A DNA stretch of 64,000 nucleotides from an uncultured archaeon (GTDB lineage Archaea > Iainarchaeota > Iainarchaeia > Iainarchaeales > VGJJ01): the NCBI GenBank assembly GCA_964480125.1, contig CAYZNV010000001.1, positions 3,736 through 67,735 on the forward strand. Reading direction: 5' to 3'. The translations under genes and the position numbers were made by a program. Below are positions 10,255 through 59,467 of the stretch, piece by piece. Below the pieces are notes generated by a model, which was given only the letters and a program-made list of their open reading frames with translations, made no database searches and had not been told where the DNA came from. Positions within the stretch are counted from its first letter, which is position 1; each line of letters starts with the position of its first letter.

Positions 10255-10258
10255 ATGA

Positions 10259-11350: not shown

Positions 11351-11395
11351 ACCTATTTTGCTACGGGAGAGAAACTTAAAGCCAGGGGGAAAAAG

Positions 11396-11980: not shown

Positions 11981-12009
11981 ACGCTCACAACACCATCCAA
12001 AAACTTAAA

Positions 12010-13265: not shown

Positions 13266-13306
13266 CTTACTACGGCGGTGCAGATTTATATGGGAAATGC
13301 TTCCTC

Positions 13307-13888: not shown

Positions 13889-13992
13889 ATAATGGCAACC
13901 AGTCAATCCAACTCGGAGAAAATGGTGAAAGCCATATCGGGTGTCGCGCAAGCGATACCCGTTCTCGGCGCGCGCGGTCGAAACACGCGCAG

Positions 13993-14739: not shown

Positions 14740-14819
14740 CATATGCAATCCCAACCCTCAAACAATACACTATAATGCGCCCTCGGACAGCTTTAAAGGT
14801 TGCGGGGTTTCAGAGAGAA

Positions 14820-41899: not shown

Positions 41900-41928
41900 T
41901 TTATAGCCCCGAACGCATTAAAGCAAGT

Positions 41929-42312
41929 ATGGCCGAGCCACGAAGAAAACAACGCGCGCGACAAACAGCGCCTTTGCGCCTCAATCGATTGCCCGTGCGG
42001 AGACCGCCCCTGCGCATCGTGCAGCGACCCATTACTAGCAGTCCCAAAGCCGTGGCAGGGCATCGTGTCACGAATATCGTGCAATTCAAGAGCAAGAGCA
42101 CGGGAAGATATCTCGTCGCGGTTTATACCCAAAATCCACGCACCAAAAAAGAAGAACGCGTGATTGTGGATCCCAAAACACTTTCAACGGAAAAATTAAA
42201 CCAACTCAAAGCATGGCATGCCCACCACAAATCAAAAGGAAGCTGGGTCCACGCCATCGCCACGGACCCACACACCTGGGCGACGATTGGAAAAATATTA
42301 TTAGCGGGATAA
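41929..42312 (+). CDS. Hypothetical basic protein (doubtful)
   Basis: 127-aa ORF in an otherwise empty 490-bp gap. Composite element C begins 13 nt after its stop. Confidence 0.25.
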   Translation: MAEPRRKQRARQTAPLRLNRLPVRRPPLRIVQRPITSSPKAVAGHRVTNIVQFKSKSTGRYLVAVYTQNPRTKKEERVIVDPKTLSTEKLNQLKAWHAHHKSKGSWVHAIATDPHTWATIGKILLAG

Positions 42313-42320
42313 AAAAACAT

Positions 42321-42384
42321 CAACTGAAGATGTGAAACATCTTCCAAGTTGTTCTCGGGGCGCCGGACGAAAACGGCCCGAAAC
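42321..42384 (+). repeat. Composite intergenic element, copy C: hairpin plus TTCTCGG-N5-CGGACGAAAAC motif
   Basis: GAAGATG-TGAAA-CATCTTC hairpin (42327-42345), then TTGTTCTCGGGGCGCCGGACGAAAACGGCCCGAAAC. Related to copies A and B. Confidence 0.4.
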
Positions 42385-42387
42385 TGG

Positions 42388-42759
42388 CTAGAGGAATTCC
42401 ACATCCCCAGTGGACTTTCCCTTTAATGATTTCAAGCGCTCCGCCAGCTGTTGCGCGCCGGCATTGCTGGGAACTAATTTGGGAGTAGAAGGCGCGCCAC
42501 TATTACTAGGAAGCAACCCACTCAACCCCCCTGCAGAGGCTGCTGAAGCAGAAGTGGAAGGAGACGGATTTGCAGAAGGCAAACCCATTGCAGGAGCAGC
42601 ACCCCCACGATAGCGCTTTCGCACTTCATTGATGCGATCCATGCTCCCATGGTCCATGGGACCCAAATAGTTGCAGCGGCGACACTTATCCCCGGCTTGC
42701 GCGGGAGAGATTTCCATCCCTCCACATTGTGGGCAGAATTTCAGTTGCATGGCATCCAC
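42388..42759 (-). CDS. Zinc-ribbon protein with long A/S/P-rich linker
   Basis: CPQCG...CRRC ribbon at the N-terminus. 16 nt downstream of the Lys-rich repeat gene. Confidence 0.5.
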   Translation of the reverse strand: MDAMQLKFCPQCGGMEISPAQAGDKCRRCNYLGPMDHGSMDRINEVRKRYRGGAAPAMGLPSANPSPSTSASAASAGGLSGLLPSNSGAPSTPKLVPSNAGAQQLAERLKSLKGKSTGDVEFL

Positions 42760-42775
42760 ATCCTCAGCATTACAC

Positions 42776-43975
42776 TTATTCTCTCATCGAAGGAAAGAGC
42801 TGGGCTTTGCTTTCTCCACCGAGCTTACTCTCTTCTTTCTCCACGATACGGCGCATGACTTCCAATTCCTTCTCGCGATGCTTCAAGCGCTGCAAGCAAT
42901 AGAAGTAGGCGTTGATGATGGAATCAAAGTCCAAGCTGCGTTTGAAACCCAAGCGCGCAATTTCCTCAAAATAGAGTTTAACGAGTTGTGCTGCCACTTG
43001 CTCGTCTGGCATACCACGATCTGCAACCATTTCCATCACCTTCTGCGTGTGCGATGACACTTTCTCTGAAACTAAACGCGAATCCGACTTGGAATCGGAA
43101 CGAACACTACTCGACTGCACGTGCGAGGAAGCGGACTTACTCATGTCCTTCTCCATCGCATGCATCTCATCCTTAATCGCAGAGAGTTCGCGACGAACCG
43201 CATTCATTTGCGTATTGCTGTTCACGCTGCCCAAAATCTCTTTTTTGAGAGACTCTAGCTGCTGCGCGGTCTTGGTGTCTGTTGCGGGAATGCGCTTGAT
43301 GATGGTGCGCGTCTTCACGACGGGAACATTCTTCACAATCGTGCGCGTTTTTGTCACGGGAACACGCTTGATGATGGTTTTCGTTTTGGTAATGGTGCGC
43401 GTCTTCACATTAGAGCGCGCCGCATCGGGATTCTCCAAAATCTTCTTGGATTTCTTCCATTGCGAAACGGCTTCCTCAAATGTCTTACCGCTTCGGATCT
43501 GCTGGCGCACGAAGAGATTGTACATGGATAACTCTCTCTTCTCCACGGGCTTCTTGCGATTGGTCTTCAAACCCGTAATGGCTTCCTTCAATTTCTCCAA
43601 TTCGGATTTGATTTCGGTATTTTGGGTTGAAAGTTTTTTCGTGGAAGACTGCAAGGACTTCGAGAGACGCTTATTTCCCTTAGAAACATTTTCCTTGACA
43701 TCCTGCACGTCCGATTTCACGGATTTCACTTGCTTCGAGACACCCTTGTTCACGGCCTTTGCGGCTTTCGTCGCGGACTTTACCGCTTTCGTCTGTTCAG
43801 CTACATTTGTCTTGACCGCTTGCACGTCCGATTTCACGGACTTCACTTGACGCGTGACACCCGATTTCACTTCTTGAACATCGGACTTCACACCCTTCAA
43901 TTGCTTTCGGATGACCTTTCCCGCAACTTTACCGGGTTTCTTATCCGCTTTTTTAGCCATAATGAGACACTCCAC
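42776..43975 (-). CDS. Lysine-rich tandem-repeat protein with HMG-box-like motif (candidate nucleic-acid/chromatin-binding protein)
   Basis: 11-aa VKSVKSDVQxVK repeats and 12-aa KTRTI[IV]K[RN][VI]P repeats, both visible as DNA repeats. Central KRELSMYNLFVRQQIRSGKTFEEAVSQWKKS resembles HMG-box helix 1/2. Coiled-coil segments. Confidence 0.55.
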   Translation of the reverse strand: MECLIMAKKADKKPGKVAGKVIRKQLKGVKSDVQEVKSGVTRQVKSVKSDVQAVKTNVAEQTKAVKSATKAAKAVNKGVSKQVKSVKSDVQDVKENVSKGNKRLSKSLQSSTKKLSTQNTEIKSELEKLKEAITGLKTNRKKPVEKRELSMYNLFVRQQIRSGKTFEEAVSQWKKSKKILENPDAARSNVKTRTITKTKTIIKRVPVTKTRTIVKNVPVVKTRTIIKRIPATDTKTAQQLESLKKEILGSVNSNTQMNAVRRELSAIKDEMHAMEKDMSKSASSHVQSSSVRSDSKSDSRLVSEKVSSHTQKVMEMVADRGMPDEQVAAQLVKLYFEEIARLGFKRSLDFDSIINAYFYCLQRLKHREKELEVMRRIVEKEESKLGGESKAQLFPSMRE

Positions 43976-44048
43976 CTAATGCAGGAATAAGCGCCTCGCA
44001 GGTTTAAAAGAAATAGCTTAAAATGCCCCAGAATACCCAATCAGAGAT

Positions 44049-44669
44049 ATGCCATCCCCCCGAGGAAGACCGAATCCAAAGGTGCACCTGGAACATCAAG
44101 TTGGGACAATAGAACGCAAAAGAGTCAAAAGTTATGGTAATTTGGGAATTGAATCGGTAGTGATTCCGCGCACGCGCATCAGTGAGCTCATAGCCGAATG
44201 GATAGAAAGCCAACCAAAAAAAGCAGTTCTTGTCCCACTTCCTGGAAGCAAGCATAAACGATTGGTGCTCACACCCGCAGGGAGATATGATTTAGCTACA
44301 TTCCACCCCATCTCCAAAAAAATAGGAGAACTAACCGAATCCCAAAAACAACGCTATGCCAAACGATTTATCCTCCGAGCGCGGCAAGAAAGCCGACGCG
44401 ACAGCGTCCTGCGGAGATCGCATGTCAGGCAAGGGCAGCTTGGACCCAAAAGCTACTCGTGGAAAAAAATATTGGAGGATAAAATGAAATTCGCCCAATC
44501 TATGCAACGCGTCGTCGAAATGAATGCACGCACATTCGAACGAAGAATGCCGGATGGAAAAATGGGAGAGGTATTGGAAGCCGAAGTGCGACGCACTATC
44601 CAAGGATGGAAAAACCTCGCAGACATGCTCAAATATACAATTGAACAGTACGGAAATAAGGTGGAGTAA
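44049..44669 (+). CDS. Hypothetical basic protein
   Basis: 206 aa, Arg/Lys-rich. The stop overlaps the start of a zinc-ribbon miniprotein. Confidence 0.45.
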   Translation: MPSPRGRPNPKVHLEHQVGTIERKRVKSYGNLGIESVVIPRTRISELIAEWIESQPKKAVLVPLPGSKHKRLVLTPAGRYDLATFHPISKKIGELTESQKQRYAKRFILRARQESRRDSVLRRSHVRQGQLGPKSYSWKKILEDKMKFAQSMQRVVEMNARTFERRMPDGKMGEVLEAEVRRTIQGWKNLADMLKYTIEQYGNKVE

Positions 44670-44777
44670 ATGCAATCCTTCGCGTGCGCGCAGTGCAATA
44701 CAGCGATGTACGAGGCCAAGTGCAAGACCATCTGCCCTAATTGTGGAAACAAAATGGACTGCTCGGACCTATTCTAG
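44670..44777 (+). CDS. 35-aa zinc-ribbon miniprotein (CxxC-x11-CxxC), translationally coupled
   Basis: MQSFACAQCNTAMYEAKCKTICPNCGNKMDCSDLF. The ATG abuts the upstream TAA (TAAATG). GGTGGAG sits 8 nt upstream. Absent from the supplied track because it is under 60 aa. Confidence 0.45.
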   Translation: MQSFACAQCNTAMYEAKCKTICPNCGNKMDCSDLF

Positions 44778-44825
44778 TAAAAAAAAAGGAATTCCATTAT
44801 TAAAGCCAAGAAGAATGCTCCAACT

Positions 44826-45467
44826 ATGGTTTCCACACAAGCGCTTGCGATTATTTTCTTAGGAGTATTATTCGCAGGGGCATTTTTTGTGTATCCATTA
44901 CTCCCTCCAACCATTGCCGTACACTGGAATGCTTTAGGGGAAGCGGATGGGTTCGCGAGCAAAGAAGCCGGAGTCGCATTACTTCCACTCATCACTTTTT
45001 TCGTGGGAATTATTCTGTTTTTCGTCCCAAAACTCAAGGGAATGCAACGCATCATGCAATCATTCCAGCGCGAATATGATTTGTTCGCGCTCACATTCAT
45101 TTTGTTTTTGGGATACCTATTCATGCTCACCACGCTATGGAATCTAGGCTATCGATTCGAATTTGTTTCCGCGCTCGTGCCGGGAGTCGCGGTGTTGTTC
45201 TTGGTATTGAGCCACTTGCTCGAGAAAAGCAAACCCAATCCATTTGTGGGAATACGCTTGCCTTCCACGCTGAAGAACCCAAAAATATGGAAGCAAGTCC
45301 ACGTGCGCGCTGGAAAAAGACTGCGGGGTGGAACGATCATCATGCTCATCGGAATTTTCATTCCCGATTATGCAGTGGCATTCATTCTATTACCCTTGCT
45401 GTATTTCGTGGCCGATAGCATTTGGTATGCACAGAAACTGCAAGCCAACGAAAAGAAAACAGCCTAA
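44826..45467 (+). CDS. SdpI/YhfL-family membrane protein (DUF1648)
   Basis: P..HWN..G..D N-terminal motif. PNPFVGIRLPSTL resembles the NxxxGxRxPWT SdpI motif. 4 TM helices. Confidence 0.5.
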   Translation: MVSTQALAIIFLGVLFAGAFFVYPLLPPTIAVHWNALGEADGFASKEAGVALLPLITFFVGIILFFVPKLKGMQRIMQSFQREYDLFALTFILFLGYLFMLTTLWNLGYRFEFVSALVPGVAVLFLVLSHLLEKSKPNPFVGIRLPSTLKNPKIWKQVHVRAGKRLRGGTIIMLIGIFIPDYAVAFILLPLLYFVADSIWYAQKLQANEKKTA

Positions 45468-45538
45468 TTTTTTGGACACAGCATCCTTCCAGCGATGCAC
45501 CAAAACACTTAATCAATCCCCTGCACAAGCATAGGAGC

Positions 45539-46165
45539 ATGGATGCCATTATCCTCGCAGGAGGAAAAGGACAACGCATGTCCCAAGAGGTACCAAAACC
45601 CCTCGTTCTCGCGAGAGGAAAAACCATCATTGAAAGGCAAATCGAATACCTCTTACCACATGCAGAAAAAATCATTATTTCTTTGGGACATCGCGCTGGA
45701 GAAATAGAAGCGTTTGTTCATGAACGATTTCCGAATGAAAATATTACATTCGCAGTGGAAAAAGAACCGCGAGGAACTGGAGGAGGATTACGCCTCGCAA
45801 TGCAACAATCACACGCGGGAAAAGTAGTCGTAGTGAACTGCGATGACATCACGGATATTTCTTTACAAGAATTACAAGCAAAAAATAAGCACACCATTTG
45901 CGTGGCACACCCGCGACTGCCATTTGGGTTAGTGAAAGAAAAAAATGGATTCGCCATTTTTGAGGAAAAACCACTATTGAAAGAATGGGTGTCGTGCGGA
46001 TGGTATGTGTTCATGCGCGAGGAATTGATGCCGCTGCTGCCCGAAAAAGGAAGTTTAGAGTATGAAGTGTTCCCGCGCATCCAGCTACGATTACACCACC
46101 ATGAAGGATTCTGGAAACCACTCAACACGCCAAAGGATTTAGAAGAATATGAGAAGATGGAATAG
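45539..46165 (+). CDS. Sugar-phosphate nucleotidyltransferase (NTP-transferase family)
   Basis: MDAIILAGGKGQRM...KPL glycine-rich loop. EKEPRGTGGG. AGGAG immediately upstream. Start set at 45539. Confidence 0.7.
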   Translation: MDAIILAGGKGQRMSQEVPKPLVLARGKTIIERQIEYLLPHAEKIIISLGHRAGEIEAFVHERFPNENITFAVEKEPRGTGGGLRLAMQQSHAGKVVVVNCDDITDISLQELQAKNKHTICVAHPRLPFGLVKEKNGFAIFEEKPLLKEWVSCGWYVFMREELMPLLPEKGSLEYEVFPRIQLRLHHHEGFWKPLNTPKDLEEYEKME

Positions 46166-46183
46166 GGTGATAAGATAAATAAT

Positions 46184-47302
46184 TTACTTCAACGCATCCT
46201 CGGGAAGCAAAACAGTAATATTTTTGGTGCGGCCCCTTCCTGAAGTGTCGGTTTCGGTGCGGAGCAATTTCTTTACTTCTAATTCAACGACAATCTCTCT
46301 CACTCTTCTATCGCTCAACTCAAAACCCATTCGAGCCATTTGCCCATACAACGCGTTCGAGGGAATGTTTTTCCCACCGAGCTTGAAGAGAGCCTGCAAG
46401 ACTTGCTTCTGGGGAATCTGCAAGAAAGGAACGGCACGCATCACCGCAATCACTTCACGGTCCTCAAATGCCTCTTTCGCGTGCTCCACTTCAATTTTAT
46501 TCGCGTTCTTGCGCTCGGCAATCTTACCGGCTTTCAGCAGGGCATCCAATCCCTTCCGACAATCTCCCCCATGCTTGGCCGCGTGGCCGGCAATAAGAGA
46601 AATAATATCCTCCGAAATCGCATCCGGGTGCATCGCCATCTTCGCACGTTCGCGAAGGATATCCTTCAATTGTGGCGGCGCATATTGTGGAAATTCCACC
46701 GCCTCATGAGAAAAAGAACTACGAACGCGATCATCGAGCTTGCTAGGGATGCTAGTGTCATTGGAAATGAGAATAATAGGAATGGCCTTCCTCCCATGCT
46801 CGGGCAAGCGAAGCAAATCATACAATAACTCATTCCCATCATTCGCGAGCAGCTGATCGAACTCATCAAACACTAAAACAGGAACAAACGAAGCAAACTT
46901 CATCCCTTCCAATACTTTCGCATACAACTCATTCGTGCTCATTCCCCGCGCAGGAACGGGGCGCTCAACGACACGCGTTAACTCCGCAAGAACGGCTTGG
47001 CGAGAATTCAGGGCAAAACAATTAATGTAAACCGGCTTCACGCGCGCAGAAAAATCCTTCAACTGCTGCATCACAAACTTCAGCGTGACCGTCTTTCCCG
47101 TGCCAGGGGGACCAAACACAAAAACGTGCGAGGCATTCCCTCCCTCTGCAAGGGGCTTCAGCGCATATACGAGGGTTTGGATCTGCGTATCGCGGTGGGG
47201 AAGCACCTCGGGGAGATATTCGGGAGAGAGGGCCCGCTCATCCTTGAAAATAGCATGCTCCTTGGAAGCGCGCGCAAACACATTATCCTTCATCATGCAC
47301 AT
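46184..47302 (-). CDS. orc1: Orc1/Cdc6 replication initiator
   Basis: Walker [16 protein letters not shown] Walker B. C-terminal winged helix ...GRGRTKNITV. Confidence 0.9.
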   Translation of the reverse strand: MCMMKDNVFARASKEHAIFKDERALSPEYLPEVLPHRDTQIQTLVYALKPLAEGGNASHVFVFGPPGTGKTVTLKFVMQQLKDFSARVKPVYINCFALNSRQAVLAELTRVVERPVPARGMSTNELYAKVLEGMKFASFVPVLVFDEFDQLLANDGNELLYDLLRLPEHGRKAIPIILISNDTSIPSKLDDRVRSSFSHEAVEFPQYAPPQLKDILRERAKMAMHPDAISEDIISLIAGHAAKHGGDCRKGLDALLKAGKIAERKNANKIEVEHAKEAFEDREVIAVMRAVPFLQIPQKQVLQALFKLGGKNIPSNALYGQMARMGFELSDRRVREIVVELEVKKLLRTETDTSGRGRTKNITVLLPEDALK

Positions 47303-47430
47303 AAAACGCCGCCATTGGTTATAAGGAAAGCGTTTTTCACGGCGGAGCCGCGGGGGCCTGCAAAAGGATATAGCACTGGGAAAGCACGAACATAGTTACC
47401 TCAAACTGAGGGAAGGACGGTGAAACGCAC

Positions 47431-47643
47431 ATGACGGCCACACTCAAAAGCCTGCTTGAATCCCAAAAAATGGAGATTCTCCACGCACGCAAGAACGCAT
47501 TATTCAACCTATTGCCGGATGCCCCGGACTTCCGCCTCGCACGGATTGAATTGTTTGATTTGCTTACCCAAATCGAGCGCAGCAAACATTTTACCATGCC
47601 AGAAGTACCCCACTTCAATTTGGGAATTCCCAGCATGGCATAG
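47431..47643 (+). CDS. Small hypothetical protein (70 aa)
   Basis: GGTGA 7 nt upstream of the ATG, the same RBS geometry as the surface-protein gene. Helical sequence. Confidence 0.3.
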   Translation: MTATLKSLLESQKMEILHARKNALFNLLPDAPDFRLARIELFDLLTQIERSKHFTMPEVPHFNLGIPSMA

Positions 47644-47697
47644 ACACTTACAAGAGAAAATGAACAAAAAAAGGCTCACAATCCAGAAATAACATCA

Positions 47698-47742
47698 GGT
47701 ATTGCTTGCAATACCTGTTCTCGGTCCGCACGGACGAAACCG
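47698..47742 (+). repeat. Composite intergenic element, copy A: palindrome GGTATTGC-TT-GCAATACC plus ORB-like CTCGGTCCGCACGGACGAAACCG, in the orc1/cdc6 upstream region
   Basis: 23-nt motif matches copy B at 22 of 23 positions in reverse complement. Dyad GTCCG-CA-CGGAC followed by GAAAC recalls the archaeal origin-recognition-box architecture. Confidence 0.45.
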
Positions 47743-47813
47743 TGCTCTAACACTAACCCATTCCTCCATTTGGGTTAATTCAGCATTGCGGCTTCGCCCG
47801 CATGCTATCCCCC

Positions 47814-48002
47814 TTATTTTTTGCGCTTATTCTGCAATAACTCTCTTTCCCCAAACATCAAAATAAAGAAAATAGTAATCACGCTCAAACCCGTTGAGAA
47901 ATAGTGCAAGGGCAAGCGAAACGTCGTGAAAATAACCGCCCACCCAAAAAGAATAGCAATCGTAATGAGTGCGGCCCGCATCGCGGCATGGAGTTTCTGC
48001 AT
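47814..48002 (-). CDS. Small 2-TM membrane protein (doubtful)
   Basis: MQKLHAAMRAALITIAILFGWAVIF... inner start of a longer track ORF that otherwise overlaps the neighbouring gene. Confidence 0.25.
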   Translation of the reverse strand: MQKLHAAMRAALITIAILFGWAVIFTTFRLPLHYFSTGLSVITIFFILMFGERELLQNKRKK

Positions 48003-48087
48003 AGGTGGAAAGAACAAAAGGGGGAATAAAAGCTTTCTCAAAAAATTCTCCCTAGGTTTAAAGCCGTTCTGGGAAAAACAAAGAAGC

Positions 48088-48666
48088 ATGCGCGGGTTCG
48101 TTTCATTCGTGTTGCTCGTGTTAATCGCAAGCGTGGGAATCAGCCAATACGCCCTACAATCCACGCATCACGCCCCTCTAACAAAGGGAATAGAAATACA
48201 ATCTCTCGCAGCCCAGCGAAGCCAACTTGAACAAGGAATGGATCGCATCATCACCGAAGAACTACGCACAGGGATGCAACAACAATTACCCTCCGAGCAA
48301 ATCAAAACCCACATCAATAGCGCGCTCGCACTTTACCTCTACGAGCAGCAGCAACACATCTCACTTCCTATGCGCATGCAAGCAGGATTTGCAACGATGC
48401 AAACCACCCATTATCTTTCACTTGCACAAGCGCCATTACAACCCCTTTCAACCCAAACCCTCAACGCGTACTCGCATGTGTTTGTTCTTCCATTGAATCA
48501 AACCCAGCAGTATGGAGAATATACCTACACCGGAGGCGCGTTTGGCACAAACATTTTGCTGGCAAAACTCACCACAGCCGAAAGCGCAACCATTGCGGCA
48601 TTACCGAGCGGGTATCGCATTTGCGTGCTTGATGCAATCGGAGAAGTCCCCTGCGTTGCAGGATAA
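48088..48666 (+). CDS. Class III signal peptide (type IV pilin-like) protein
   Basis: MRG-FVSFVLLVLIASVGI: charged N-terminus, Gly, then a hydrophobic stretch. Start chosen at 48088 inside the longer track ORF. Confidence 0.4.
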   Translation: MRGFVSFVLLVLIASVGISQYALQSTHHAPLTKGIEIQSLAAQRSQLEQGMDRIITEELRTGMQQQLPSEQIKTHINSALALYLYEQQQHISLPMRMQAGFATMQTTHYLSLAQAPLQPLSTQTLNAYSHVFVLPLNQTQQYGEYTYTGGAFGTNILLAKLTTAESATIAALPSGYRICVLDAIGEVPCVAG

Positions 48667-48677
48667 GAGGAAAAAAA

Positions 48678-48956
48678 ATGCACACGCTCGAAACCATCCT
48701 CTGCGCATTGGCACTCATGGCTTGTTTAGGATTACTCGCAGAACCCATTCTTTCCCACCAAGCAAAACTCACTCAAGCGAAAAATGCAATGGAATCACGC
48801 TATGAAGCACTCCAGTGCAGCGCGGAATGGGATTATGCACTCGCGTCATTTGTGCAAACAACAACAGGAGGATGTAGCGATTATTCCTATGCCCTGCACG
48901 CGAATGGAAACCCATTCACCACCCTAATGGGAGGAGACTCCAACCACTATGAATAG
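48678..48956 (+). CDS. Small hydrophobic-N-terminus protein, possibly pilin-like
   Basis: MHTLETILCALALMACLGLLA. Confidence 0.3.
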   Translation: MHTLETILCALALMACLGLLAEPILSHQAKLTQAKNAMESRYEALQCSAEWDYALASFVQTTTGGCSDYSYALHANGNPFTTLMGGDSNHYE

Positions 48957-49434
48957 TCACATTCACAAAAACGAACAACGAGGACAATTCCACGCGCTTG
49001 AAATTATCCTCGTATTCTTGGGATGGATGATATTACTTGCTGGAGTATGGAGTAGTAGCACCACCATCCTTCACCAGCAAGAAAATCAATTCCTCCAAGA
49101 AAAAGCATTCGCACGCGCCCAAGCCCAAGCACACACGCTTATCGAGCAGCATCATACGAATCCCTGGAACGGGTGTGCATTATTTGATCATGCAAAGAAA
49201 CGCACGCGCGGACATATTATCGAAAAAACATGCATGCAAGAACTTACCCCCACTACTCCCACGCAAGGCGTACGCGAAGTATATGTGCGAACGCAAACGG
49301 GAAAAGAAATATTCTTCGCCGTGTCCACCATATCGCCCACACAAGAAGAAAATTGCGCCGCAATTGAACGAATTATACGCATCCACGAAACGAATGAGAT
49401 TGCATTGCTGGGAGTGATCAGCTGTGCCGAATGA
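48949..49434 (+). CDS. Class III signal peptide (pilin-like) protein
   Basis: ...EQRGQFHALEIILVFLGWMILLAGV. Confidence 0.4.
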   Translation: MNSHIHKNEQRGQFHALEIILVFLGWMILLAGVWSSSTTILHQQENQFLQEKAFARAQAQAHTLIEQHHTNPWNGCALFDHAKKRTRGHIIEKTCMQELTPTTPTQGVREVYVRTQTGKEIFFAVSTISPTQEENCAAIERIIRIHETNEIALLGVISCAE

Positions 49435-49741
49435 AAAAGGAATATTCTGGGCATTCGAATTAGGAATAGGACTACTCATCCTGAGCACGCTCTTCATTGC
49501 ACAACCCACCCAAACGCCATCGCACGCAGCAGAGCTCGCAGGCCAATTATGCCTTGATTTGCAGGAAATGTGGATGCAAGGAGAAGAGCTTGAAGCTGTC
49601 ATCCAATCCTATTTCCCTGAAAAAAACATCACCATCTCACCAGGGGCAATTTCGAGCATGGAGAACAATGCCGCTATGTGCGAGGCCACGCGCGTGCGCA
49701 ATGGGATTGTGGAAAAACAATTCATTGCGATTGAATGGTAA
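49424..49741 (+). CDS. Class III signal peptide (pilin-like) protein
   Basis: MPNEKGIFWAFELGIGLLILSTLFIA. Confidence 0.4.
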   Translation: MPNEKGIFWAFELGIGLLILSTLFIAQPTQTPSHAAELAGQLCLDLQEMWMQGEELEAVIQSYFPEKNITISPGAISSMENNAAMCEATRVRNGIVEKQFIAIEW

Positions 49742-50129
49742 TCCCATTTTCTGCGCGGGTGATGATGAGAGAAGAAAATGAGGGATTCAGCGAAGTGGAA
49801 ATAGGAATAGGGCTTTTGGCGATGAATATTTTTGGAGCAAGAAATGAAGCGTGTGTCAATTGCAATTCCAAGTCATTCCCACTAACGGAAAACTCATTGC
49901 TTGCGCTGCTGCTCCATTTGTAGATTATTTTACTCCCAGGGGCTTGGAAGGAAAGAGAATGAAAAATTGATTCGAGCTGCTGCGCATGAGATTTCAATTC
50001 CAACACTTGCTCTTGCAACGCATACGCTTGCATGAGATTGGAAAACGCAGGCGTGAATAAGGCCAGCGCCCCCGCGAGCGCAGCCCAAATCAACAAACTC
50101 TCCAATGACACTTGGCCTTGATTATTCAT
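49722..50129 (-). CDS. Archaeal type IV pilin (DUF361/Pilin_N-like)
   Basis: MNNQGQVSLESLLIWAALAGALALF matches the archetypal [KQ]GQ[VI]S[LI]E class III signal peptide. Confidence 0.6.
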   Translation of the reverse strand: MNNQGQVSLESLLIWAALAGALALFTPAFSNLMQAYALQEQVLELKSHAQQLESIFHSLSFQAPGSKIIYKWSSSASNEFSVSGNDLELQLTHASFLAPKIFIAKSPIPISTSLNPSFSSLIITRAENGITIQSQ

Positions 50130-50131
50130 GG

Positions 50132-50308
50132 TTACTCGATCTGATCAATCTTCGCAAAAACATCCTGTGTTTTCTGCTCGAGCTTCTGCACGCCGCTCGC
50201 GGAAGAAGACTGGAGTTGCGTGACCAACAACAATACCACTGCCACTACTGCCGCCATCACAATAATCAACTCAATCGAAATCTGAGCCTTTGAGTCCAAT
50301 CTACGCAT
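50132..50308 (-). CDS. Small archaeal type IV pilin (58 aa)
   Basis: MRRLDSKAQISIELIIVMAAVVAVVLLLV. Start chosen at MRRLD. Confidence 0.55.
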   Translation of the reverse strand: MRRLDSKAQISIELIIVMAAVVAVVLLLVTQLQSSSASGVQKLEQKTQDVFAKIDQIE

Positions 50309-50433
50309 GCAACACCACTCCTTCCCACAAAGGAAATAATGGCGAAGTGCGCCCAAAAATGCTTTAAAGCTAGGGAAAATTTTTCAAAAAAGAAGCCATT
50401 TGGCGTTCCACTCAAGGGGGATTTATAGGGATT

Positions 50434-51024
50434 TTGGCATTCTCTCATGAGATGAACAACCGCGAATTAACCGACCTATTGACGAGCTGGATCACCCTCT
50501 CAGCCGCATTTGCATTTGTATTCTCGGGAAGCGGATTCAACCTCACAGGGTTCCTCCCCGCGCTCGCGATTGCAGCTATTGCCGTGGGAACGGGCTTTTT
50601 ACTCCACGAATTGGCACACAAATATGTTGCGATTCATTTTGGAGCCAAAGCCGAATTCCGAGCATGGAATATGGGACTGCTTTTCGCACTCGCGGTTGCA
50701 ATATTTGCACGATTTATTTTCGCCGCACCCGGAGCCGTTTACATTTATGGAAAGCATGTGACGCAAAAAGAAAATGGGATTATCTCCGTTGCCGGGCCTG
50801 CCATGAATATCATTATTGGAATTATCGGAATCATCATTGGAGGCATTTATGCCACGAGCCAAATAGGACTCGTAGCGCAAATCGTGGGAAGCATCAACCT
50901 CTACTTAGCGTTCTTCAATTTACTCCCATTCTTCATCCTCGACGGAGCAAAAGTATTCGCGTGGAACAAAGTAGTGTGGGCCGTGCTATTCATCCCCTTG
51001 CTGGGATACTTGTTCTTTTTCTGA
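50434..51024 (+). CDS. Site-2-protease-like M50-family intramembrane metalloprotease
   Basis: HELAH inside a TM helix (LLHELAHKYVA). Polytopic. A second motif region GPAMN..IG. Confidence 0.55.
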   Translation: MAFSHEMNNRELTDLLTSWITLSAAFAFVFSGSGFNLTGFLPALAIAAIAVGTGFLLHELAHKYVAIHFGAKAEFRAWNMGLLFALAVAIFARFIFAAPGAVYIYGKHVTQKENGIISVAGPAMNIIIGIIGIIIGGIYATSQIGLVAQIVGSINLYLAFFNLLPFFILDGAKVFAWNKVVWAVLFIPLLGYLFFF

Positions 51025-51039
51025 ATCGAAAAACAAGCA

Positions 51040-53292
51040 TTAACCCACATAGTTGGGCTTGAATCCTTGTGGAGACTTTACTTGGCGATATTCCGCGTAC
51101 GCTTCCTGCGCATCCGCGGAGACAGAAGAAACCGTCTTCGCGAGGAGCGTGTCGAAGTGCTTCTTGGTGATGGGAGAGGGCTTGAGATCGTTTTCTTGTA
51201 ATGCCGCTAACGCAGCTTCGCGAATCAATCCAGCAAGATCGGCTCCAGAAAAGCCAGTGGTGCGCTTGGCAATGTCCTGCAAGGAAATACCTTTTGCGAG
51301 TGGAACGCCACGCGTGTGGACTTTGAGGATTTCTTCTCGCGCTTTTTCATCCGGCAATTTCACTTCAATAATTTTGTCAATTCTACCCGGGCGCATCAAA
51401 CCCGCATCAATCAAATCAGGGCGATTCGTGGCCGCGACAAACACCACATCTTTCATGGACTCAATTCCATCCAATTCAGTAAGTAACTGATTGACCATGC
51501 GCTCATTTACCCCAGAGTCATTGCCATACCCGCGCGCGGAAGCAATCGAATCCAGTTCGTCGAAGAACACCACTACAGGCGCAACCTGTCGAGCTTTCTT
51601 GAAAACTTGGCGAATACCCTTTTCACTTTCACCGACCCATTTTGAAACAAGCTCCGGACCCTTAATGGAAATGAAATTAGCCTGTGATTCGGTCGCAATG
51701 GCTTTAGCCAGCAATGTTTTTCCTGTGCCCGGAGGACCATACAACAACACGCCGCGTGGAGGACGAATACCCATTTCCTTGAACGCAGAAGGATTCTTGA
51801 GTGGCCACTCTACGGCTTGCTTCAACTGCGCTTTCACATCCTCCAATGAACCCACATCTTCCCATTTCACGTTTGGAACTTCCACCATGACTTCGCGTAA
51901 TGCTGAAGGCTGAATTTCTTTCAACGCGTCTTCGAAGTCTAATTTGGTGACTTTCATTTTCTCCAATACTTCTTCGGGAATCTTTTCTTCTTCTAAATTA
52001 ATCTCAGGCAAGTAGCGGCGAAGGGCTTTCATCGCGGATTCTTTCGCGAGTGCAGTGAGGTCAGCACCCACAAATCCATACGTAATATCCGCAAAGTGTT
52101 CCAAATCCACCTCGTGCAAGGGCATTCCGCGCGTGTGGATCTGCATAATTTCTAATCGCCCTTCTTTATCCGGAACCCCAATCTCAATCTCGCGATCGAA
52201 TCTTCCCGGTCGGCGGAGGGCTTCATCAATGGAGTTCACGCGGTTCGTTGCCGCAATCACAATCACATTCCCGCGGGCTTCCATTCCATCCATCAAGGAA
52301 AGCAGTTGTGCAACCACGCGGCGTTCCACCTCTCCAATGACTTCTTCGCGCTTGGGGGCAATCGCATCAATTTCATCAATAAAAATAATCGAAGGCGCGT
52401 GCTCATCGGCTTCTTTGAAGATTTGTCTTACTCTTTCTTCCGCCTCTCCAACAAACTTACTCATAATTGAAGGGGCATTTACCGAAATGAAATGCGCTTG
52501 GGTTTCATTCGCAACCGCTTTCGCGAGCAATGTCTTTCCCGTGCCGGGAGGACCATGCAACAACACGCCTTTGGGGGGTTCAATTCCTAAGCGACGGAAT
52601 AGTTCCGGATGACGCATGGGGAGTTCAATCATCTCGCGGACTTTCTGGACTTGGTTGCCTAATCCGCCCACATCTTCATATGCAATATGCGACGTGCCTT
52701 CCACTTCTCCTTTCACGGGCTCATCTTTGAGAACGAATTGGGTTGCATCGGTTACTTTCACAATGCCGCGCGGCGTGGTTTCGATCACGCGATAAATGAA
52801 ACCACTACCAAAAACGGTAATCCACACATTATCCCCGCGGGTTAAAGGACGGCCAATGAATGTTTTTTTGAGAATGCGTTCATAACCCGACGCAATAATA
52901 CGCACGTCCTGCGTGGGAGCAAGAACGACTTTCTGGGCTTCTTTGACTTGCGAAGGTCTTACAACGACCTTTTCTCCAAGCCCCACTCCCGCGTTATGGC
53001 GAATCAGGTTGTCCATGCGAATCATGTCCTTGCCCTCATCCTCTGTGCGGGCAGGCCATACAATCGCGGCTGTTTTCTTTGTCCCTTCAATTTCAACGAT
53101 GTCCCCTGAGGTAATATTGAGGGCTTGCTTGGCTTTGCGGTCTAAGGTGACAATGTTCCTCCCCACATGCGTGGGAGAAGGCTCCTGGACCTTCAGGGAG
53201 ACCTGCTTATTGCTTGCCGGGCCATTCGAGGCATTCGGGGCAGAAGGAGGGCCCAATGGATTTGGAGACGAAGGAGTCGGATTTCCAGCCAT
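51040..53292 (-). CDS. cdc48: Cdc48/VCP-type AAA+ ATPase (two AAA domains)
   Basis: N-domain, then D1 GPPGTGKT and IIFIDEID, then D2 GPPGTGKT and [11 protein letters not shown] regions. Confidence 0.9.
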
Positions 53293-53329
53293 ACTATTGC
53301 AATACTGCAGCCTAAGAGCTTTTTAACCT

Positions 53330-53433
53330 CATTTTTATGGCGAGGCTACATGCGTACCGTTCCGGCGGTACGGTGCGGAGTCGAGGTGCACCGTTGTGCA
53401 CCTCTCAAACTCTTTATGGCGAGGCTACATGCA
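53330..53433. repeat. 20-bp direct repeat TTTATGGCGAGGCTACATGC (two copies) bracketing two perfect hairpins
   Basis: Copies at 53330-53349 and 53414-53433; the second overlaps the stop of the NFACT gene. Between them: GTACCG-TTCCGG-CGGTAC and GAGGTGCAC-CGTT-GTGCACCTC. Confidence 0.45.
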
Positions 53434-54235
53434 GGGAAAGCAGCCCATTAGGAAGCGCAGCCACAATCTCATCCAACGACAACTCTTCCGCGCGCGGGAG
53501 CTTTTTCTGCAACCAGCGCAAGTAGGATTTTCCCACTTCGGTTTTGGTTTTTTCTCCAGGGATGATCTCCGCAATAATAGAGCAGTGCTTTCGAACCGCA
53601 TCAAAGGGACCGGACATAATGCGATTTCCTTCCCCAAATTTTTGCACGCCAATCCCCATGCGCATGGAGGGATCGAACCACTTTCTTTCCCCATAAATCA
53701 TGAACGCACCTTTGCCTAAACTTTCTCCTGCAGGGGCTTTCTTGGAAACCTGTTCATGCGAAACCGAATAGACACGAACGGAAAATAATCCCTTCTTCCA
53801 ACCCGAAGCAAACAGCGCCGCAAACGCAGCCGCATCCTCAAGGTCTTCTTTTTTGCCTTTTACTTTGCCTTCTTTCAACACACAATGCGGCGCCCCATGG
53901 ATGTCCGCGTGAAAATACCAGTCCTTTTCCTCTAAGTGCTTTTTTACCAAAGCCTCATTGGAATGCGTATCCCTTCCCCCAACCACGAGAAGGCCATTCC
54001 GTGTATAGCACCAGTGGAATTTCTCAAACCACTCTTTTTTGCGCACGAGCAGTGGAGATTTCTTTTGAGGCACTTCACCTTTTTTCTTCTCCAATTCCAA
54101 AATCTTTGACTGCACTTTCTGCATTCCTTCTTCGGCACCCTTCATTTTTTGTTTGAGTTTTTTAGCTTGCTCAAAATAATGCAAGGCATTCTGTTGGGCA
54201 GTTTTTGAAAAATCAATAGCGAGTTTCATCATCAA
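53414..54235 (-). CDS. NFACT-R (DUF814) domain protein (short Rqc2/NEMF-like protein lacking NFACT-N)
   Basis: GRDTHSNEALVKKHLEEKDWYFHADIHGAPHCVLKEG is the NFACT-R signature. Coiled-coil N-terminus. Only 273 aa. Confidence 0.55.
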   Translation of the reverse strand: MMMKLAIDFSKTAQQNALHYFEQAKKLKQKMKGAEEGMQKVQSKILELEKKKGEVPQKKSPLLVRKKEWFEKFHWCYTRNGLLVVGGRDTHSNEALVKKHLEEKDWYFHADIHGAPHCVLKEGKVKGKKEDLEDAAAFAALFASGWKKGLFSVRVYSVSHEQVSKKAPAGESLGKGAFMIYGERKWFDPSMRMGIGVQKFGEGNRIMSGPFDAVRKHCSIIAEIIPGEKTKTEVGKSYLRWLQKKLPRAEELSLDEIVAALPNGLLSLHVASP

Positions 54236-56433
54236 ACCTTTTTCACAGGAGTCTTTCGCACACGGGGTTTTGGTGCGGCAGCGAAAGTGGATTTTGGAGT
54301 TGAAGCGCTTGAAGTGCTAGGGGTTGCACTTGCAGTAGCGGCCTTTTCGGCCTGCTTCTTCTTCCACTCATCTTTCGAGGCGCAATCCATATTCAAGCAA
54401 ATCTCGAGGTTAAATTTCTTCCCGCGAAGCTTGATCATGGGCGCTTTACAAGTAGGACAATTCTTATTCAAGCGCAATAACGAGCCCTTTTGGGGAAGCG
54501 AATACGTTTGAGTACAATTAGGATAATTCCCACACCCCAAAAAACGCTTCCCACTCGCCGCGGCCTTGCGCATGAGCATATTCCCTCCATCGCGAGGGCA
54601 TATGGCCAGCACATCCTGGTGGGTAAAGGCCTTGCGCAAGTCGCTAGCAACTTCCATCTTGTGCACGAGGAGTTGCTCGAGGACTTCCAACAACAACTTG
54701 CGCGAGTCATCCACGACTTTGATTTTTTTCTGCTTCCCTTCTGCCACTAAATCCATTTCCTTTTCCAATTCTGCCGTCATCTTGGGTTCGGTCACAATAT
54801 GGCAGTGCTTTTCCAGGGAATCAATCACCGCAAATGCAATCTGATTCGGCTCAATGCTCTTCAAACCCGAAATGTAGCCGCGCGCATACAGCTTGTTGAT
54901 GATTTCCGCACGCGTGGCTTTTGTTCCCAAATTAAGCTCTTCCATCAACTTCAACAAAGCCGATTGCGAGTAGCGCACAGGCGGTTGGGTTTCTTTCGCC
55001 AGCAAATCCACTTTCTTAACCGGCACAAGCTCGCCTTCCTTCAATAGGGGAAGAATGACCTCATTGAGTTGCGAATACGGATAAACGGCTTTCCATCCAG
55101 GAGAAATAATAGTCTGCCCCGTTGCAACAAAGGGCTCGCGATGAATATCCAATTCCACCGAAACATTTTCCGTGAGCGCATCATCCATGAAAGTAGCCAA
55201 GAAACGGCGCGCAATCAACTCAAACACTTTCCATTCTTTCTCCCCAATACTGCGTGGCGGGACGCGCGTGGGATGAATGGGAGGATGATCTTTTGTCTCG
55301 GTCCCACGCGAAGGATTCAGGGGCTTTGAGAGAATCTGCTTCACAAATGGAACGTAATCCGGATTCGCATTCATCGCTTCCAATAGCTCACGCAGATCCA
55401 ACGTAGAAGGATACGCCGAACAATCCGTACGAGGATAGGAAATAAACCCCTGCATGTAGAGGGTTTCCGCCACATGCATGGCTTGGCCGGCCGTAAGACC
55501 TAATCCTGTGGCGGAGCGCAGGTATTGCGTGGTGTTGAAGGGAATGGGCCTTGCAAGGGAACGCGTTTTCTTTGAAACGCTTTTCACTAAAGCTTCTTTT
55601 GCGCCCTTTACTTTTTCAAAAATAGCTTTTGCTTTGGGCTCTTCCCAAAACTTTCCTTCTTTATGAGAAGCTTCAAATGAAACTTTTTCTTTCTCCAATT
55701 GCGCAACAATTTCCCAATAGGGCTTTTTCTCAAAAGCAATACGCTCTTTTTCACGATTCACGATGAGCGCGAGCACAGGGGTTTGCACGCGTCCTACGGA
55801 AATGAAATCCTTCCCCATGCGATTGCCCATAATGGAAACATAGCGTGTAAGAACCGCGCCCCAGACCAAATCAATTTCTCTCCTCGAATCCGCGGAATCC
55901 GAGAGATTGTAATCCACCCCCACTAATTCCGAAAAACTCTTCTGTAATTCTTTGGGAGTCATTGCGGAAAAGTACGCACGATCTACTTTAGCAGTAGGAT
56001 TCGTTTCTTGCATGATGCGCAGGGCTTCCACGCCAATACTCTCTCCTTCGCGATCGGCATCCGTTGCAATGGTAACGGTTTGGGCATCCTTTCCTAAGTT
56101 TCGCAATAAATGCGCAATTTCAGGTTCAGAGGGATTGTAGTCAATGGGGGCATTCACGAGTTCTTTCAAATCCGTGCCCTTCCAATAACTATACTTCTTT
56201 GGAAAATCCACTTCAACGACGTGCCCTTTCAATGGCAAGACAATCGTGGGTTTTTTCTTGAATTCTAATTCAAAATAACGCGCTCTACCATGGGATTTGG
56301 TAATCACCTTTGAATCCGCAAGAATCTGAGCAATTCTCTCTCCGGCAATGGACTTTTCCGCGATAATGATGTGCATACTACTCCTATGGCAAAAACCATT
56401 ATAATAAGAGAAACTATTTCTTAGGAATGCCAA
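54232..56433 (-). CDS. topA: DNA topoisomerase IA (TopA/Topo III-like) with C-terminal zinc ribbons
   Basis: TOPRIM N-terminus MHIIIAEKSIAGERIAQILA. Type IA core. C-terminal C4 ribbons (CPRDGGNM...CGNYPNC, CPTCKAP...C). Confidence 0.85.
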   Translation of the reverse strand: MAFLRNSFSYYNGFCHRSSMHIIIAEKSIAGERIAQILADSKVITKSHGRARYFELEFKKKPTIVLPLKGHVVEVDFPKKYSYWKGTDLKELVNAPIDYNPSEPEIAHLLRNLGKDAQTVTIATDADREGESIGVEALRIMQETNPTAKVDRAYFSAMTPKELQKSFSELVGVDYNLSDSADSRREIDLVWGAVLTRYVSIMGNRMGKDFISVGRVQTPVLALIVNREKERIAFEKKPYWEIVAQLEKEKVSFEASHKEGKFWEEPKAKAIFEKVKGAKEALVKSVSKKTRSLARPIPFNTTQYLRSATGLGLTAGQAMHVAETLYMQGFISYPRTDCSAYPSTLDLRELLEAMNANPDYVPFVKQILSKPLNPSRGTETKDHPPIHPTRVPPRSIGEKEWKVFELIARRFLATFMDDALTENVSVELDIHREPFVATGQTIISPGWKAVYPYSQLNEVILPLLKEGELVPVKKVDLLAKETQPPVRYSQSALLKLMEELNLGTKATRAEIINKLYARGYISGLKSIEPNQIAFAVIDSLEKHCHIVTEPKMTAELEKEMDLVAEGKQKKIKVVDDSRKLLLEVLEQLLVHKMEVASDLRKAFTHQDVLAICPRDGGNMLMRKAAASGKRFLGCGNYPNCTQTYSLPQKGSLLRLNKNCPTCKAPMIKLRGKKFNLEICLNMDCASKDEWKKKQAEKAATASATPSTSSASTPKSTFAAAPKPRVRKTPVKKV

Positions 56434-57209
56434 CCCCGCCGCGCCGAATACGCAATATGAACGCTCGTCGACTCGAAGAGAGAAGACGAAAACAATGGAA
56501 TGCAGAACCGTATCAAAGAGATGACGGAATGAGCTATTCCAAACCCATTGATGAACACCATGGAATCAGAAAAAAACTCAATGTATTACCCCCATTATTC
56601 AAACAGCTCGAAGAAAGAGGTTTTATCGGAAAAGTCATCCTAGATGTGGGCAGCGCAAAACGAAGCGTGTCTGATGAATACTTTCAACGACAGAGCCGAT
56701 TATTCTATCCCACTACTGGAAAAAAAATTATTCGTGTCGACGTTGGATTTGAAAAATTAGCGAGTGAAAAAGAAGGAATATTGGATTTGCAAGCCGATAT
56801 CGAAGACAATTCAACTGATTCCACCATACAAAAGAAACGATTACTTCATGCAGCACGTTATCTTGGAGTTGACCCAAGGAAAAAAATCCCCCAAGTAGAT
56901 ACGCTCGTTTTCTCGGATGTACTCAACTATGTCGATTACCGCCGCTCCATTTTACGAATGAGTCGATTTTTGAAAATTGGAGGGAGAATTGTTATCTTTA
57001 ACCAACCAGGACATGGAATGGGAGATAAATTTCATCCCAAAAGAGGATTAACAGACAACCATCGACTCCTGCAATTATTGGAGCGAATGGGATTTTCAGT
57101 CGAGCACCAGGAGCCAGTCAGTTACAGCCCAAGTACCCCATTATACCCAACTGTCAAACCAGTCACCCCTAATGACCGCGTGTTGATTGTCGCACGACGA
57201 ATTAAATAA
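56427..57209 (+). CDS. Class I methyltransferase-like protein
   Basis: VILDVGSAKRS...DTLVFSDVLNYVD...LKIGGRIVIFN pattern. Start uncertain. Confidence 0.45.
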   Translation: MPTPPRRIRNMNARRLEERRRKQWNAEPYQRDDGMSYSKPIDEHHGIRKKLNVLPPLFKQLEERGFIGKVILDVGSAKRSVSDEYFQRQSRLFYPTTGKKIIRVDVGFEKLASEKEGILDLQADIEDNSTDSTIQKKRLLHAARYLGVDPRKKIPQVDTLVFSDVLNYVDYRRSILRMSRFLKIGGRIVIFNQPGHGMGDKFHPKRGLTDNHRLLQLLERMGFSVEHQEPVSYSPSTPLYPTVKPVTPNDRVLIVARRIK

Positions 57210-57215
57210 AGTAAA

Positions 57216-57698
57216 TTATTCCGCAAACAACTTCTTCTGCAGGGGGATTGCGGGCAAAGAATTGGTCTTGCGCGTTTCAGAAAGAACGGCCATGGAATTG
57301 ATCTCCAACACCCCATCCAATTTACCCAAATCCTCCACCATCTTCTTGGCTTTAGGAAAATCAGGCACTAACAACTTCAACACAAAATTATGATTCCCCA
57401 GCACGTGCGCATACTCAAGAACAAAATCCATATCCGCGAACTTTCTCTCCAACGAAGTAATCTTCGCAGGGTCGGCTTTCAGCAGCGCATAAATGGGTTT
57501 AGAATAACCCAACGAATCATAATTCAACTCGGCACGAACCCCATGAATGAGATTCTGGCGCTTCAAGCGCTCAAAGCGTTTCTTGATTGCCACATCCGTG
57601 AGCTTTGTTTCTCTAGCAATCTGAGAAAAAGAAGCACGACCATCTTCCATGAGACGCTGCAAAATCAACTTATCAATGCGATCAAAGGAAACCATAGC
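57216..57698 (-). CDS. lrp: Lrp/AsnC-family transcriptional regulator
   Basis: HTH ...ASFSQIARETKLTDVAIKKRFERL and a RAM domain. Start set at MVSFDRIDK; TTATATT box about 28 nt upstream. Confidence 0.8.
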   Translation of the reverse strand, partial: AMVSFDRIDKLILQRLMEDGRASFSQIARETKLTDVAIKKRFERLKRQNLIHGVRAELNYDSLGYSKPIYALLKADPAKITSLERKFADMDFVLEYAHVLGNHNFVLKLLVPDFPKAKKMVEDLGKLDGVLEINSMAVLSETRKTNSLPAIPLQKKLFAE

Positions 57699-57760
57699 AG
57701 GATAGAAGCAGCACAGAAATATAAGTGGAGCGGATGCATGGTTCGGATTCCAAACCTGCC

Positions 57761-57810
57761 CGGTTTCGTCCGGGCGGACCGAGGAAGGGTTATTGCAACT
57801 GCAATAACCC
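57761..57810 (-). repeat. Composite intergenic element, copy B: ORB-like motif plus palindrome GGTTATTGCA-ACTG-CAATAACC, upstream of lrp
   Basis: Reverse complement reads GGTTATTGCAGTTGCAATAACC-CTTC-CTCGGTCCGCCCGGACGAAACCG, collinear with copy A. The palindrome arms are lengthened but remain symmetric. Confidence 0.45.
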
Positions 57811-57840
57811 AACAATTTTTCTTTTTTGAATGGGCGACTA

Positions 57841-57868
57841 CTTTTTTCTTTTTTAAAAAGAAAAAAGG
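57841..57868 (-). terminator. T-rich palindromic terminator downstream of the 57876-59399 gene
   Basis: CTTTTTTCTTTTT/AAAAAGAAAAAAG perfect 13-nt inverted repeat beginning 8 nt after the stop. Confidence 0.45.
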
Positions 57869-57875
57869 AGTGCGA

Positions 57876-59399: not shown

Positions 59400-59467
59400 A
59401 CTCTCCACTAAGAATGGGGCTTTTAATATGCATATCGGCATGCATAGGCAATAGCCTGGGAAATACT

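Follow-up and report, generated by a model that had tools for sequence, protein, structure and literature searches.

In the 64,000-nucleotide stretch of contig CAYZNV010000001.1 analyzed here (the window), which comes from an uncultured archaeon of the Iainarchaeales, we find four copies of a structured element of about 50 nt that forms a dispersed family in one Iainarchaeum-like clade of the DPANN archaea. Homologues of its Orc1 assign the window to an Iainarchaeum/Diapherotrites-like DPANN archaeon. Each copy is built of a first hairpin (HP1, 8-11 bp), a single-stranded linker with UYUCG, and a second hairpin (HP2, 5-6 bp) with the loop NCGAAA (Table 1). Comparison with related genomes indicates that the element is under selection for its two hairpins and a few invariant unpaired bases, and that its copies have been retained at gene boundaries by vertical descent and homogenized within genomes. 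As a structured repeat of DPANN archaea it is new and uncatalogued, and in behavior it comes closest to the repetitive extragenic palindromic (REP) elements of bacteria. The reading that we favor, at about even chances, is that of a dispersed structured RNA module which lies mostly in 3' untranslated regions (UTRs), is REP-like in behavior, and has a function that we infer. In DPANN archaea, whose genomes are tiny and whose intergenic spacers are very short, hardly any non-coding RNA biology has been described, and the element offers a testable candidate for the way in which they mark, protect, or regulate the ends of transcripts, or alternatively for an archaeal equivalent of REP.

Table 1. 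Copies of the element in the window, with their parts and the genes on either side.
Copy	Positions	Strand	HP1	Linker	HP2	Preceding gene, same strand (distance from stop codon to copy)	Following gene
A	47696-47745	+	CAGGTATTGC-TT-GCAATACCTG (47696-47717)	TTCTCGGTCC (47718-47727)	GCACGG-ACGAAA-CCGTGC (47728-47745)	conserved 70-aa gene, 47431-47643 + (53 nt)	ORF 47926-48666 +, tandem
B	57758-57810	-	GGGTTATTGCA-GT-TGCAATAACCC (57810-57787)	TTCCTCGGTCC (57786-57776)	GCCCGG-ACGAAA-CCGGGC (57775-57758)	DUF4139 gene, 57876-59441 - (65 nt)	lrp, ATG at 57695
C (diverged member)	42326-42379	+	GAAGATG-TGAAA-CATCTTC (42326-42344)	CAAGTTGTTCTCGG (42345-42358)	GG(C)GCCG-GACGAAAA-CGGCCC (42359-42379)	ORF 41929-42312 + (13 nt)	TFS/Rpb9-like gene, 42388-42759 -, convergent
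D	13938-13990	+	CGGGTGTCGC-GCAA-GCGATACCCG (13938-13961)	TTCTCGGC (13962-13969)	GCGCG(C)GG-TCGAAA-C(A)CGCGC (13970-13990)	ORF 13307-13888 + (193 aa)	PCNA gene, 13993-14754 -, convergent

Copies A, B, and C had been reported in an initial annotation of the window, and their places and quoted sequences were confirmed; the family is not limited to these three, however, as copy D had been missed. The copies are also non-random, as had been claimed. A pattern search for the exact sequence CGGACGAAAMC gave three matches in the 64 kb, namely copies A, B, and C, and no inverted repeat of the window is longer than that formed by A and B (33 nt, 85%). A covariance model built on the linker and HP2, here called R1, scores copy A at 46.5 bits, copy B at 45.3, copy C at 14.6 (E=0.009), and copy D at 19.8 (E=2e-4). 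A structure-descriptor scan, for which 0.22 matches per 64 kb are expected at random, recovered A, B, and D, and RNA folding gave z-scores of -3.7, -4.2, -3.2, and -3.3 for copies A to D, respectively.

Copies A and B illustrate how the structure is preserved. Their HP2 folds as GC[A/C]CGG-ACGAAA-CCG[T/G]GC, and the single mismatch within the 23-nt block that they share is one half of a compensatory change in this hairpin (GCACGG/CCGTGC vs. GCCCGG/CCGGGC), the compensating base sitting three bases past the end of the block. The dyad GTCCG-NN-CGGAC, into which the block had initially been parsed, is an alternative pairing possible in copies A and B only. The palindromes in front of the block are indeed symmetric with different arm lengths, but they are not independent of each other: one is the homologue of the other, GGT(T)ATTGC(A), the insertions being paired.

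Further support came from closer relatives, which were found via their DUF4139 and RFC proteins (78-90% identity), are syntenic with the window, and include the complete genome CP064981.1. These same-clade relatives have counterparts of copies A, B, and C at the corresponding gene boundaries, with copy B retained in four loci (the DUF4139-lrp spacers of L137, L138, L139, and L140) and copies A and C in one each. Across the four related genomes both hairpins are kept at the syntenic sites with many compensatory changes, in support of the earlier suggestion of a structured RNA or hairpin. In the copy B orthologues, HP1 is wholly different in each (CAGGTGGT-GAAA-ACCACCTG, GGGCTGCTGC-GCAA-GCAGTAGCCC, and CAGGTGTTGC-AAG-GCAACACCTG), and HP2 is likewise rewritten yet still paired, as C(A/G)CCC-UACGAAAU-GGG(U/C)G. 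The copy A orthologue in CP064981.1 (L137 21281-21331, minus strand) reads CAGGTGCAA-CCGC-TTGCACCTG, then GATATCGAACC, then ACACCG-TCGAAA-CGGTGT, with both stems rewritten; at the same position in L138 the element is absent. The site syntenic to copy C in CP064981.1 (L141 1-145, minus strand) contains two family members in tandem (R1 20.2 bits), and a CGAAACTGGCT tail follows copy C and these tandem members alike.

The CP064981.1 locus L069 holds two more copies. One of them, L069a (6770-6820), is 94% identical to window copy A with unrelated flanks; it follows a GNAT-like gene and converges with tRNA-Cys. The second copy is located between a TATA-like box and the 23S rRNA, about 350 nt ahead of the latter. 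The orthologues and the L069 copies all fold as two hairpins (z -3.1 to -5.0). More distant relatives, with Orc1 either 65-70% identical or 86% identical with broken synteny, yielded no copies in 103 kb by descriptor scan, and L003, L004, L005, and L134-L136 among them have none near orc1. In L004 the position of copy A is occupied by a GC hairpin and T-run only, and the spacer at the position of copy C is 1 bp long.

We also observed in CP064981.1 a hairpin GAACCC-TTGAGAA-GGG(T/C)(T/C)C followed by ATC(C/G)AAGGA upstream of two different copies (L141 1-145, minus strand; L137 21330-21390, minus strand), which suggests a longer repeat unit or tandem hairpin arrays in that genome.

Taking 14 distinct copies together, standard pairs are formed in every copy (14/14) at all seven basal positions of HP1 and all five loop-proximal positions of HP2, with 14 extra pair types in HP1 and seven in HP2. 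When partners were shuffled, the mean paired fraction was 0.65 for HP1 and 0.61 for HP2, and the maximum never exceeded 0.80 in 2000 trials. RNAalifold recovers HP2 with compensatory changes at three of its six pairs. Pairs kept by compensatory substitutions across homologues are the generic mark of a structured RNA, and the sequences indicate that the element bears it. HP1 varies across copies in both loop (2-5 nt) and arm (7-11 bp), a variation that a hairpin tolerates and a dimeric DNA site of fixed spacing would not. The unpaired positions are, in contrast to the stems, nearly invariant: UCG is present in the linker of all 14 copies and CGAAA in the HP2 loop of 13. The exception, L141 C'1, has the loop UUGAGAA together with a linker UUCUC that is complementary to GAGAA.

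Likeness between copies does not follow descent from site to site. Window copies A and B, which are paralogues in the same genome, are 79% identical, and copy A and L069a, which are non-orthologous and in different genomes, share the 94% given above; each of the two window copies is less similar to its own orthologue (67% for A and 50% for B). The copies of CP064981.1 have in common the bases CAGGTG...CACCTG and linkers of the form GAT(A/T)TCG(A/G)ACC. This likeness among paralogues points to within-genome turnover or gene conversion, or to co-evolution with a genome-specific partner.

Our preferred reading places the activity of the element in RNA, within untranslated transcript ends, which are in most cases the 3' UTR of the gene upstream and in one case the pre-23S leader. 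It draws on placement, since five window-clade copies follow a stop codon on the same strand, one lies in an rRNA leader, and orientation in tandem contexts is predominantly co-directional. Copies A, B, C, D, and L069a each begin 13-65 nt after such a stop codon (the initial annotation had already pointed this out for A, B, and C), which amounts to five of the seven non-orthologous sites examined in the window and CP064981.1, where all copies are intergenic. Eight of 10 independent placements in tandem gene contexts are co-directional with transcription, and two are antisense. We propose that UCG of the linker could pair with CGA of the HP2 loop, leaving AA free, and that this short pseudoknot could lock the two hairpins together. 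Such a compact fold would resist nucleases, exonucleases included, or bind a conserved factor, and transcript ends would in this way be marked or protected, as by bacterial REP. The invariant nucleotides would then either form a tertiary core or be the bases that a conserved partner contacts.

Several points weigh against this proposal. The copies have three G.U pairs and one A.C pair, which is too few to decide the strand. Because the stem arms were selected for complementarity, an ascertainment bias enters the pairing statistics given above, which are somewhat overstated; that orthologous sites bear different yet perfect hairpins is a fact independent of this bias. The case for the pseudoknot consists of the invariant bases and a single suggestive co-change, that of L141 C'1. 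The element is present at only two of the approximately 17 convergent gene junctions in the window, which means that it is not a general terminator. In a related form of the element from Nanoarchaeia, described below, the copies in L128 (grpE-dnaK) and L024 (CDC48-gatD) are antisense to the flanking operons and would need a promoter of their own. Lastly, the patchy distribution and the homogenized paralogues fit a mobile DNA repeat equally well.

A mobile repeat, similar to REP or to miniature inverted-repeat transposable elements (MITEs), is the main rival, and we regard it as possible, with a probability well short of even. The hairpins would then matter as single-stranded DNA for a genome-encoded enzyme, such as a REP-associated tyrosine transposase (RAYT/Y1) or another HUH nuclease, which would copy or convert the element between intergenic sites, any effect in RNA being secondary. 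The abundance of the element (four copies in the 64-kb window and six in the 41.5 kb sampled from CP064981.1), the tandem duplication at the copy C site, the greater similarity of paralogues than of orthologues, the variable presence (copy A missing from L138 and no copies in the 103 kb of more distant relatives), and the occurrence of both orientations in the Nanoarchaeia type all agree with mobility. Nevertheless, no Y1/HUH, integrase, or other transposase domain was found among the roughly 70 open reading frames (ORFs) of the window, and the boundary between presence and absence of copy A shows no target-site duplication. Three further points count against mobility: copies have stayed at orthologous sites while evolving in a compensatory manner, two DPANN classes have 18 core nucleotides in common, and the Nanoarchaeia-type copy ends exactly at the Shine-Dalgarno sequence in four gene contexts.

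Among known elements, the nearest comparison is with bacterial REP and bacterial interspersed mosaic elements (BIMEs). REP is a single palindrome flanked by GTAG, REP and BIMEs are mobilized by RAYT transposases, and REP elements have a role at transcript 3' ends similar to the one that we propose. Like them, the element has short palindromes that are imperfect, occurs at many intergenic sites, chiefly the 3' ends of genes and convergent junctions, and shows tandem arrangements and homogenization within genomes. In contrast, the element is archaeal (DPANN), combines two different hairpins with an invariant linker and loop, has no RAYT-like gene in the window, shares its core between DPANN classes, and has some relatives that look like independent RNA genes.

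Those relatives emerged from pattern scans of genome and metagenome collections. Among the matches listed for the genome collection, L012, L024, L041, L069, and L080 are real and the remainder are mostly chance matches in GC-rich bacterial coding DNA; the metagenome scan gave seven real and three chance matches, and the viral scan gave a single match, in coding DNA and attributable to chance. Among the matches listed, the core is present in the AT-rich, Nanoarchaeia-like contigs L012, L024, L041, L080, L124-L126, L128, and L131-L133. R1 scores these Nanoarchaeia-type copies at 42-55 bits, as compared to 45-47 bits for Iainarchaeum copies. Their core reads YCUCGGUGU-[Y]AACGG-ACGAAA-CCGUU[R]; ahead of it come GAAACUUUUU-loop-AAAAAGUUUC and, as a rule, a further hairpin, and conservation ceases exactly where HP2 ends. 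The 18 core nucleotides mentioned above are those common to the Iainarchaeia and the Nanoarchaeia. The upstream and downstream flanks, whose genes have no functional relation to each other, include FtsZ and a TPR protein, DUF7502 and MoxR, an unknown gene and Rrp4, AtpB and AtpD, and GyrB and S3Ae, respectively. A small ORF within this type (MKLFRKKFLGVNGRNR followed by a stop codon) was considered and rejected, as it is broken in L131 and L124.

The Nanoarchaeia-type copies suggest a different role, as a cis-regulatory or independent small RNA (sRNA), i.e., a riboswitch-like or protein-binding leader or a trans-acting sRNA, of which the window copies would be reduced versions; we consider this rather unlikely for the element as a whole. 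In L126, L133, L131, and L012, HP2 is directly followed by GAGGUGA and the start codon, and in L124 and L132 it is overlapped by the atpD ATG. An A/T-rich, TATA-like sequence lies upstream of this type, and in L128 HP2 is followed by a T-run and the element is positioned in a way incompatible with co-transcription. An upstream GUUGACA could moreover pair with UGUCAAC in competition with HP2, and this alternative pairing co-varies once (GUUAACA/UGUUAAC). In the Iainarchaeum clade, the copy that occupies the 23S leader, with a TATA box ahead of it, would be compatible with such a role. The window copies fit it poorly: C and D face convergent genes, and the TATA box of lrp, which is apparently leaderless, comes only after copy B, so that copy B would be outside the lrp mRNA. 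The genes downstream of the Nanoarchaeia-type copies (atpD, moxR, rrp4, the TPR protein, and S3Ae) have no common pathway, and no known riboswitch or sRNA family matches the element.

Also rather unlikely, in our judgment, is that the element is the Iainarchaeal form of an undescribed, deeply conserved DPANN RNA class with an activity of its own, such as ligand or protein sensing or self-processing. This possibility is raised because of the shared invariant core of 18 nucleotides, the promoter-driven features of the Nanoarchaeia type, the position of HP2 at the ribosome-binding sites and start codons of housekeeping genes, and the pre-23S copy.

A long Nanoarchaeia-type form of about 155 nt with two extra 5' hairpins was also seen in L128 (2772-2925, plus strand), L041 (948-1105, plus strand), and L080 (1484-1645, minus strand). 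One of the extra hairpins covaries (GGTTTCGC/GCGAAACC vs. GTTGTCGC/GCGACAAC), and a YGCC/GGUG helix could enclose the middle hairpins. The long form looks like an independent, uncatalogued sRNA gene.

Searches of known RNA families and of the literature did not identify the element. Rfam 15, with the hammerhead, mini-ykkC, signal recognition particle, RNase P, 5S, and C/D families among those covered, gave no match to it in the window at the gathering score; with the cutoff relaxed to E<=10, nothing relevant turned up in copy A, the loci of the Nanoarchaeia type, L128, or the leader in L069. Literature word searches returned no description of it. The GUCCG..CGGAC-GAAAC of copies A and B resembles the CUGAUGA-stem II-GAAAC of hammerhead ribozymes, but the element has neither a CUGAUGA core nor a stem III, and the other copies do not preserve the pairing. 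Its GGACGA..CC likewise resembles the ACGR-capped GC hairpins of the guanidine-II (mini-ykkC) riboswitch; here, however, the loop is a hexaloop, NCGAAA, and occurs on one hairpin only. RNase P, signal recognition particle, and 5S RNA identities were rejected for the L069 leader and the long Nanoarchaeia form, as no model matched and the partial resemblances were unconvincing, and by inspection the sequence requirements of the kink-turn, bulge-helix-bulge, and T-loop motifs are not satisfied. The element also recalls the boxB-boxA leader signals of lambda nut sites and rrn antitermination in its order of hairpin, conserved single-stranded box, and hairpin and in having one copy in an rRNA leader. 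It differs from them in lacking sequence similarity and in that most copies are at 3' ends, some of them facing convergent genes. Archaea, moreover, are not known to have NusB.

The weakest explanation, which we consider very improbable, is the one first put forward for copy A, i.e., an origin recognition box (ORB)-like site for Orc1/Cdc6 marking an origin beside orc1, together with an Lrp operator in the palindrome of copy B. Its appeal is that the block in A and B can be written as GTCCG-NN-CGGAC-GAAAC, a short dyad and then GAAAC as in archaeal ORBs and mini-ORBs, that the window is rich in replication genes, and that copy A was placed about 400 bp from orc1. That distance is accurate (394 bp to the start codon), but a conserved 70-aa gene (Table 1) intervenes. 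The conserved structure is HP2 and not the dyad, which is gone in the orthologues and in the Nanoarchaeia type (e.g., ACCACACCGTCGAAAC, GTGTCAACGGAC). The element is missing from the orc1 neighborhood in seven related loci (L138, L003, L004, L005, and L134-L136), the other window copies are 5, 10, and 33 kb from orc1, and copies in other genomes adjoin unrelated genes; the neighbors of the copies away from orc1 are PCNA, a tRNA gene, the 23S leader, atpD, ftsZ, and others. No repeat array was found in 45900-48100, nor any A/T-rich unwinding element flanked by copies; the canonical TTCCA-N(0-4)-TGGAA has two matches in the window (154 and 14940), which is chance level, and neither is near orc1. 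Cumulative GC skew has no inflection near 47.7 kb, where a turn had been anticipated, and stem covariation with variable loop lengths is a poor fit for duplex recognition by Orc1. As such, the origin call is not supported, and the sequence beside orc1 does not appear to be an ORB. The Lrp operator fares no better, as the HP1 proposed to form it is completely rewritten in L137, L138, and L139.

Both promoters concerned contain other palindromic sequences. The lrp promoter has, between its TATA box (TTATATTT, 57723-57716) and copy B, the palindrome GGTTTGGAATCCGAACC (57756-57740, minus strand), which is kept in sequence in the window and L137 and has one substitution in L138 (GGTTCGGAATCCGAACC); we regard this dyad as a better candidate than the copy B palindrome for an lrp autoregulatory operator. 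At orc1, immediately ahead of the start, an inverted repeat CGCCGCC(A/G)TTGG...C(A/T)CGGCGGA brackets a TTATAAGG-like box and is conserved between the window (47306-47345), L003 (~3120-3175), and L004 (~9950-10000). It may be an autoregulatory site for Orc1.

Further sequence features adjoin the copies. Just 3' of copy A (47752-47822, plus strand), the 29-nt block CTAACCCATTCCTCCATTTGGGTTAATTC is identical in the window, L137, and L138, the last of which has no copy A. It is followed by a covarying hairpin TGCGG..CCGCA and then by CCCCTTATTTTTT, and the loop of the first hairpin exposes CCUCC. The ORF MEEWVSV... on the opposite strand is not conserved, and we consider 47752-47822 a candidate for a separate small RNA or terminator module. 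On the other side of the window's copy B, an A/T-rich palindrome CTCCTTTTTTCTTTTTAAAAAAGAAAAAAG (57826-57870) follows the DUF4139 stop codon. L139 and L140 have the near variant CTCCTTTTTTCTTTTGAGAAAAGAAAAAAG; in L137 and L138 the palindrome is deleted, and copy B there lies about 20 nt past the stop.

The replication genes of the window cluster at 5358-14754 and 40415-47302 and comprise GINS51, PriS, PriL, two PCNA paralogues (12534-13316 and 13993-14754), the RFC large subunit, and Orc1, with TopA and CDC48 nearby. The spacer between lrp and topA is about 780 bp in the window (56434-57215), where it contains a plus-strand ORF (56427-57209; 260 aa; no Pfam match), and only about 44 bp in CP064981.1 (L137) and L138. 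By this comparison, 56434-57215 appears to be a lineage-specific insertion.

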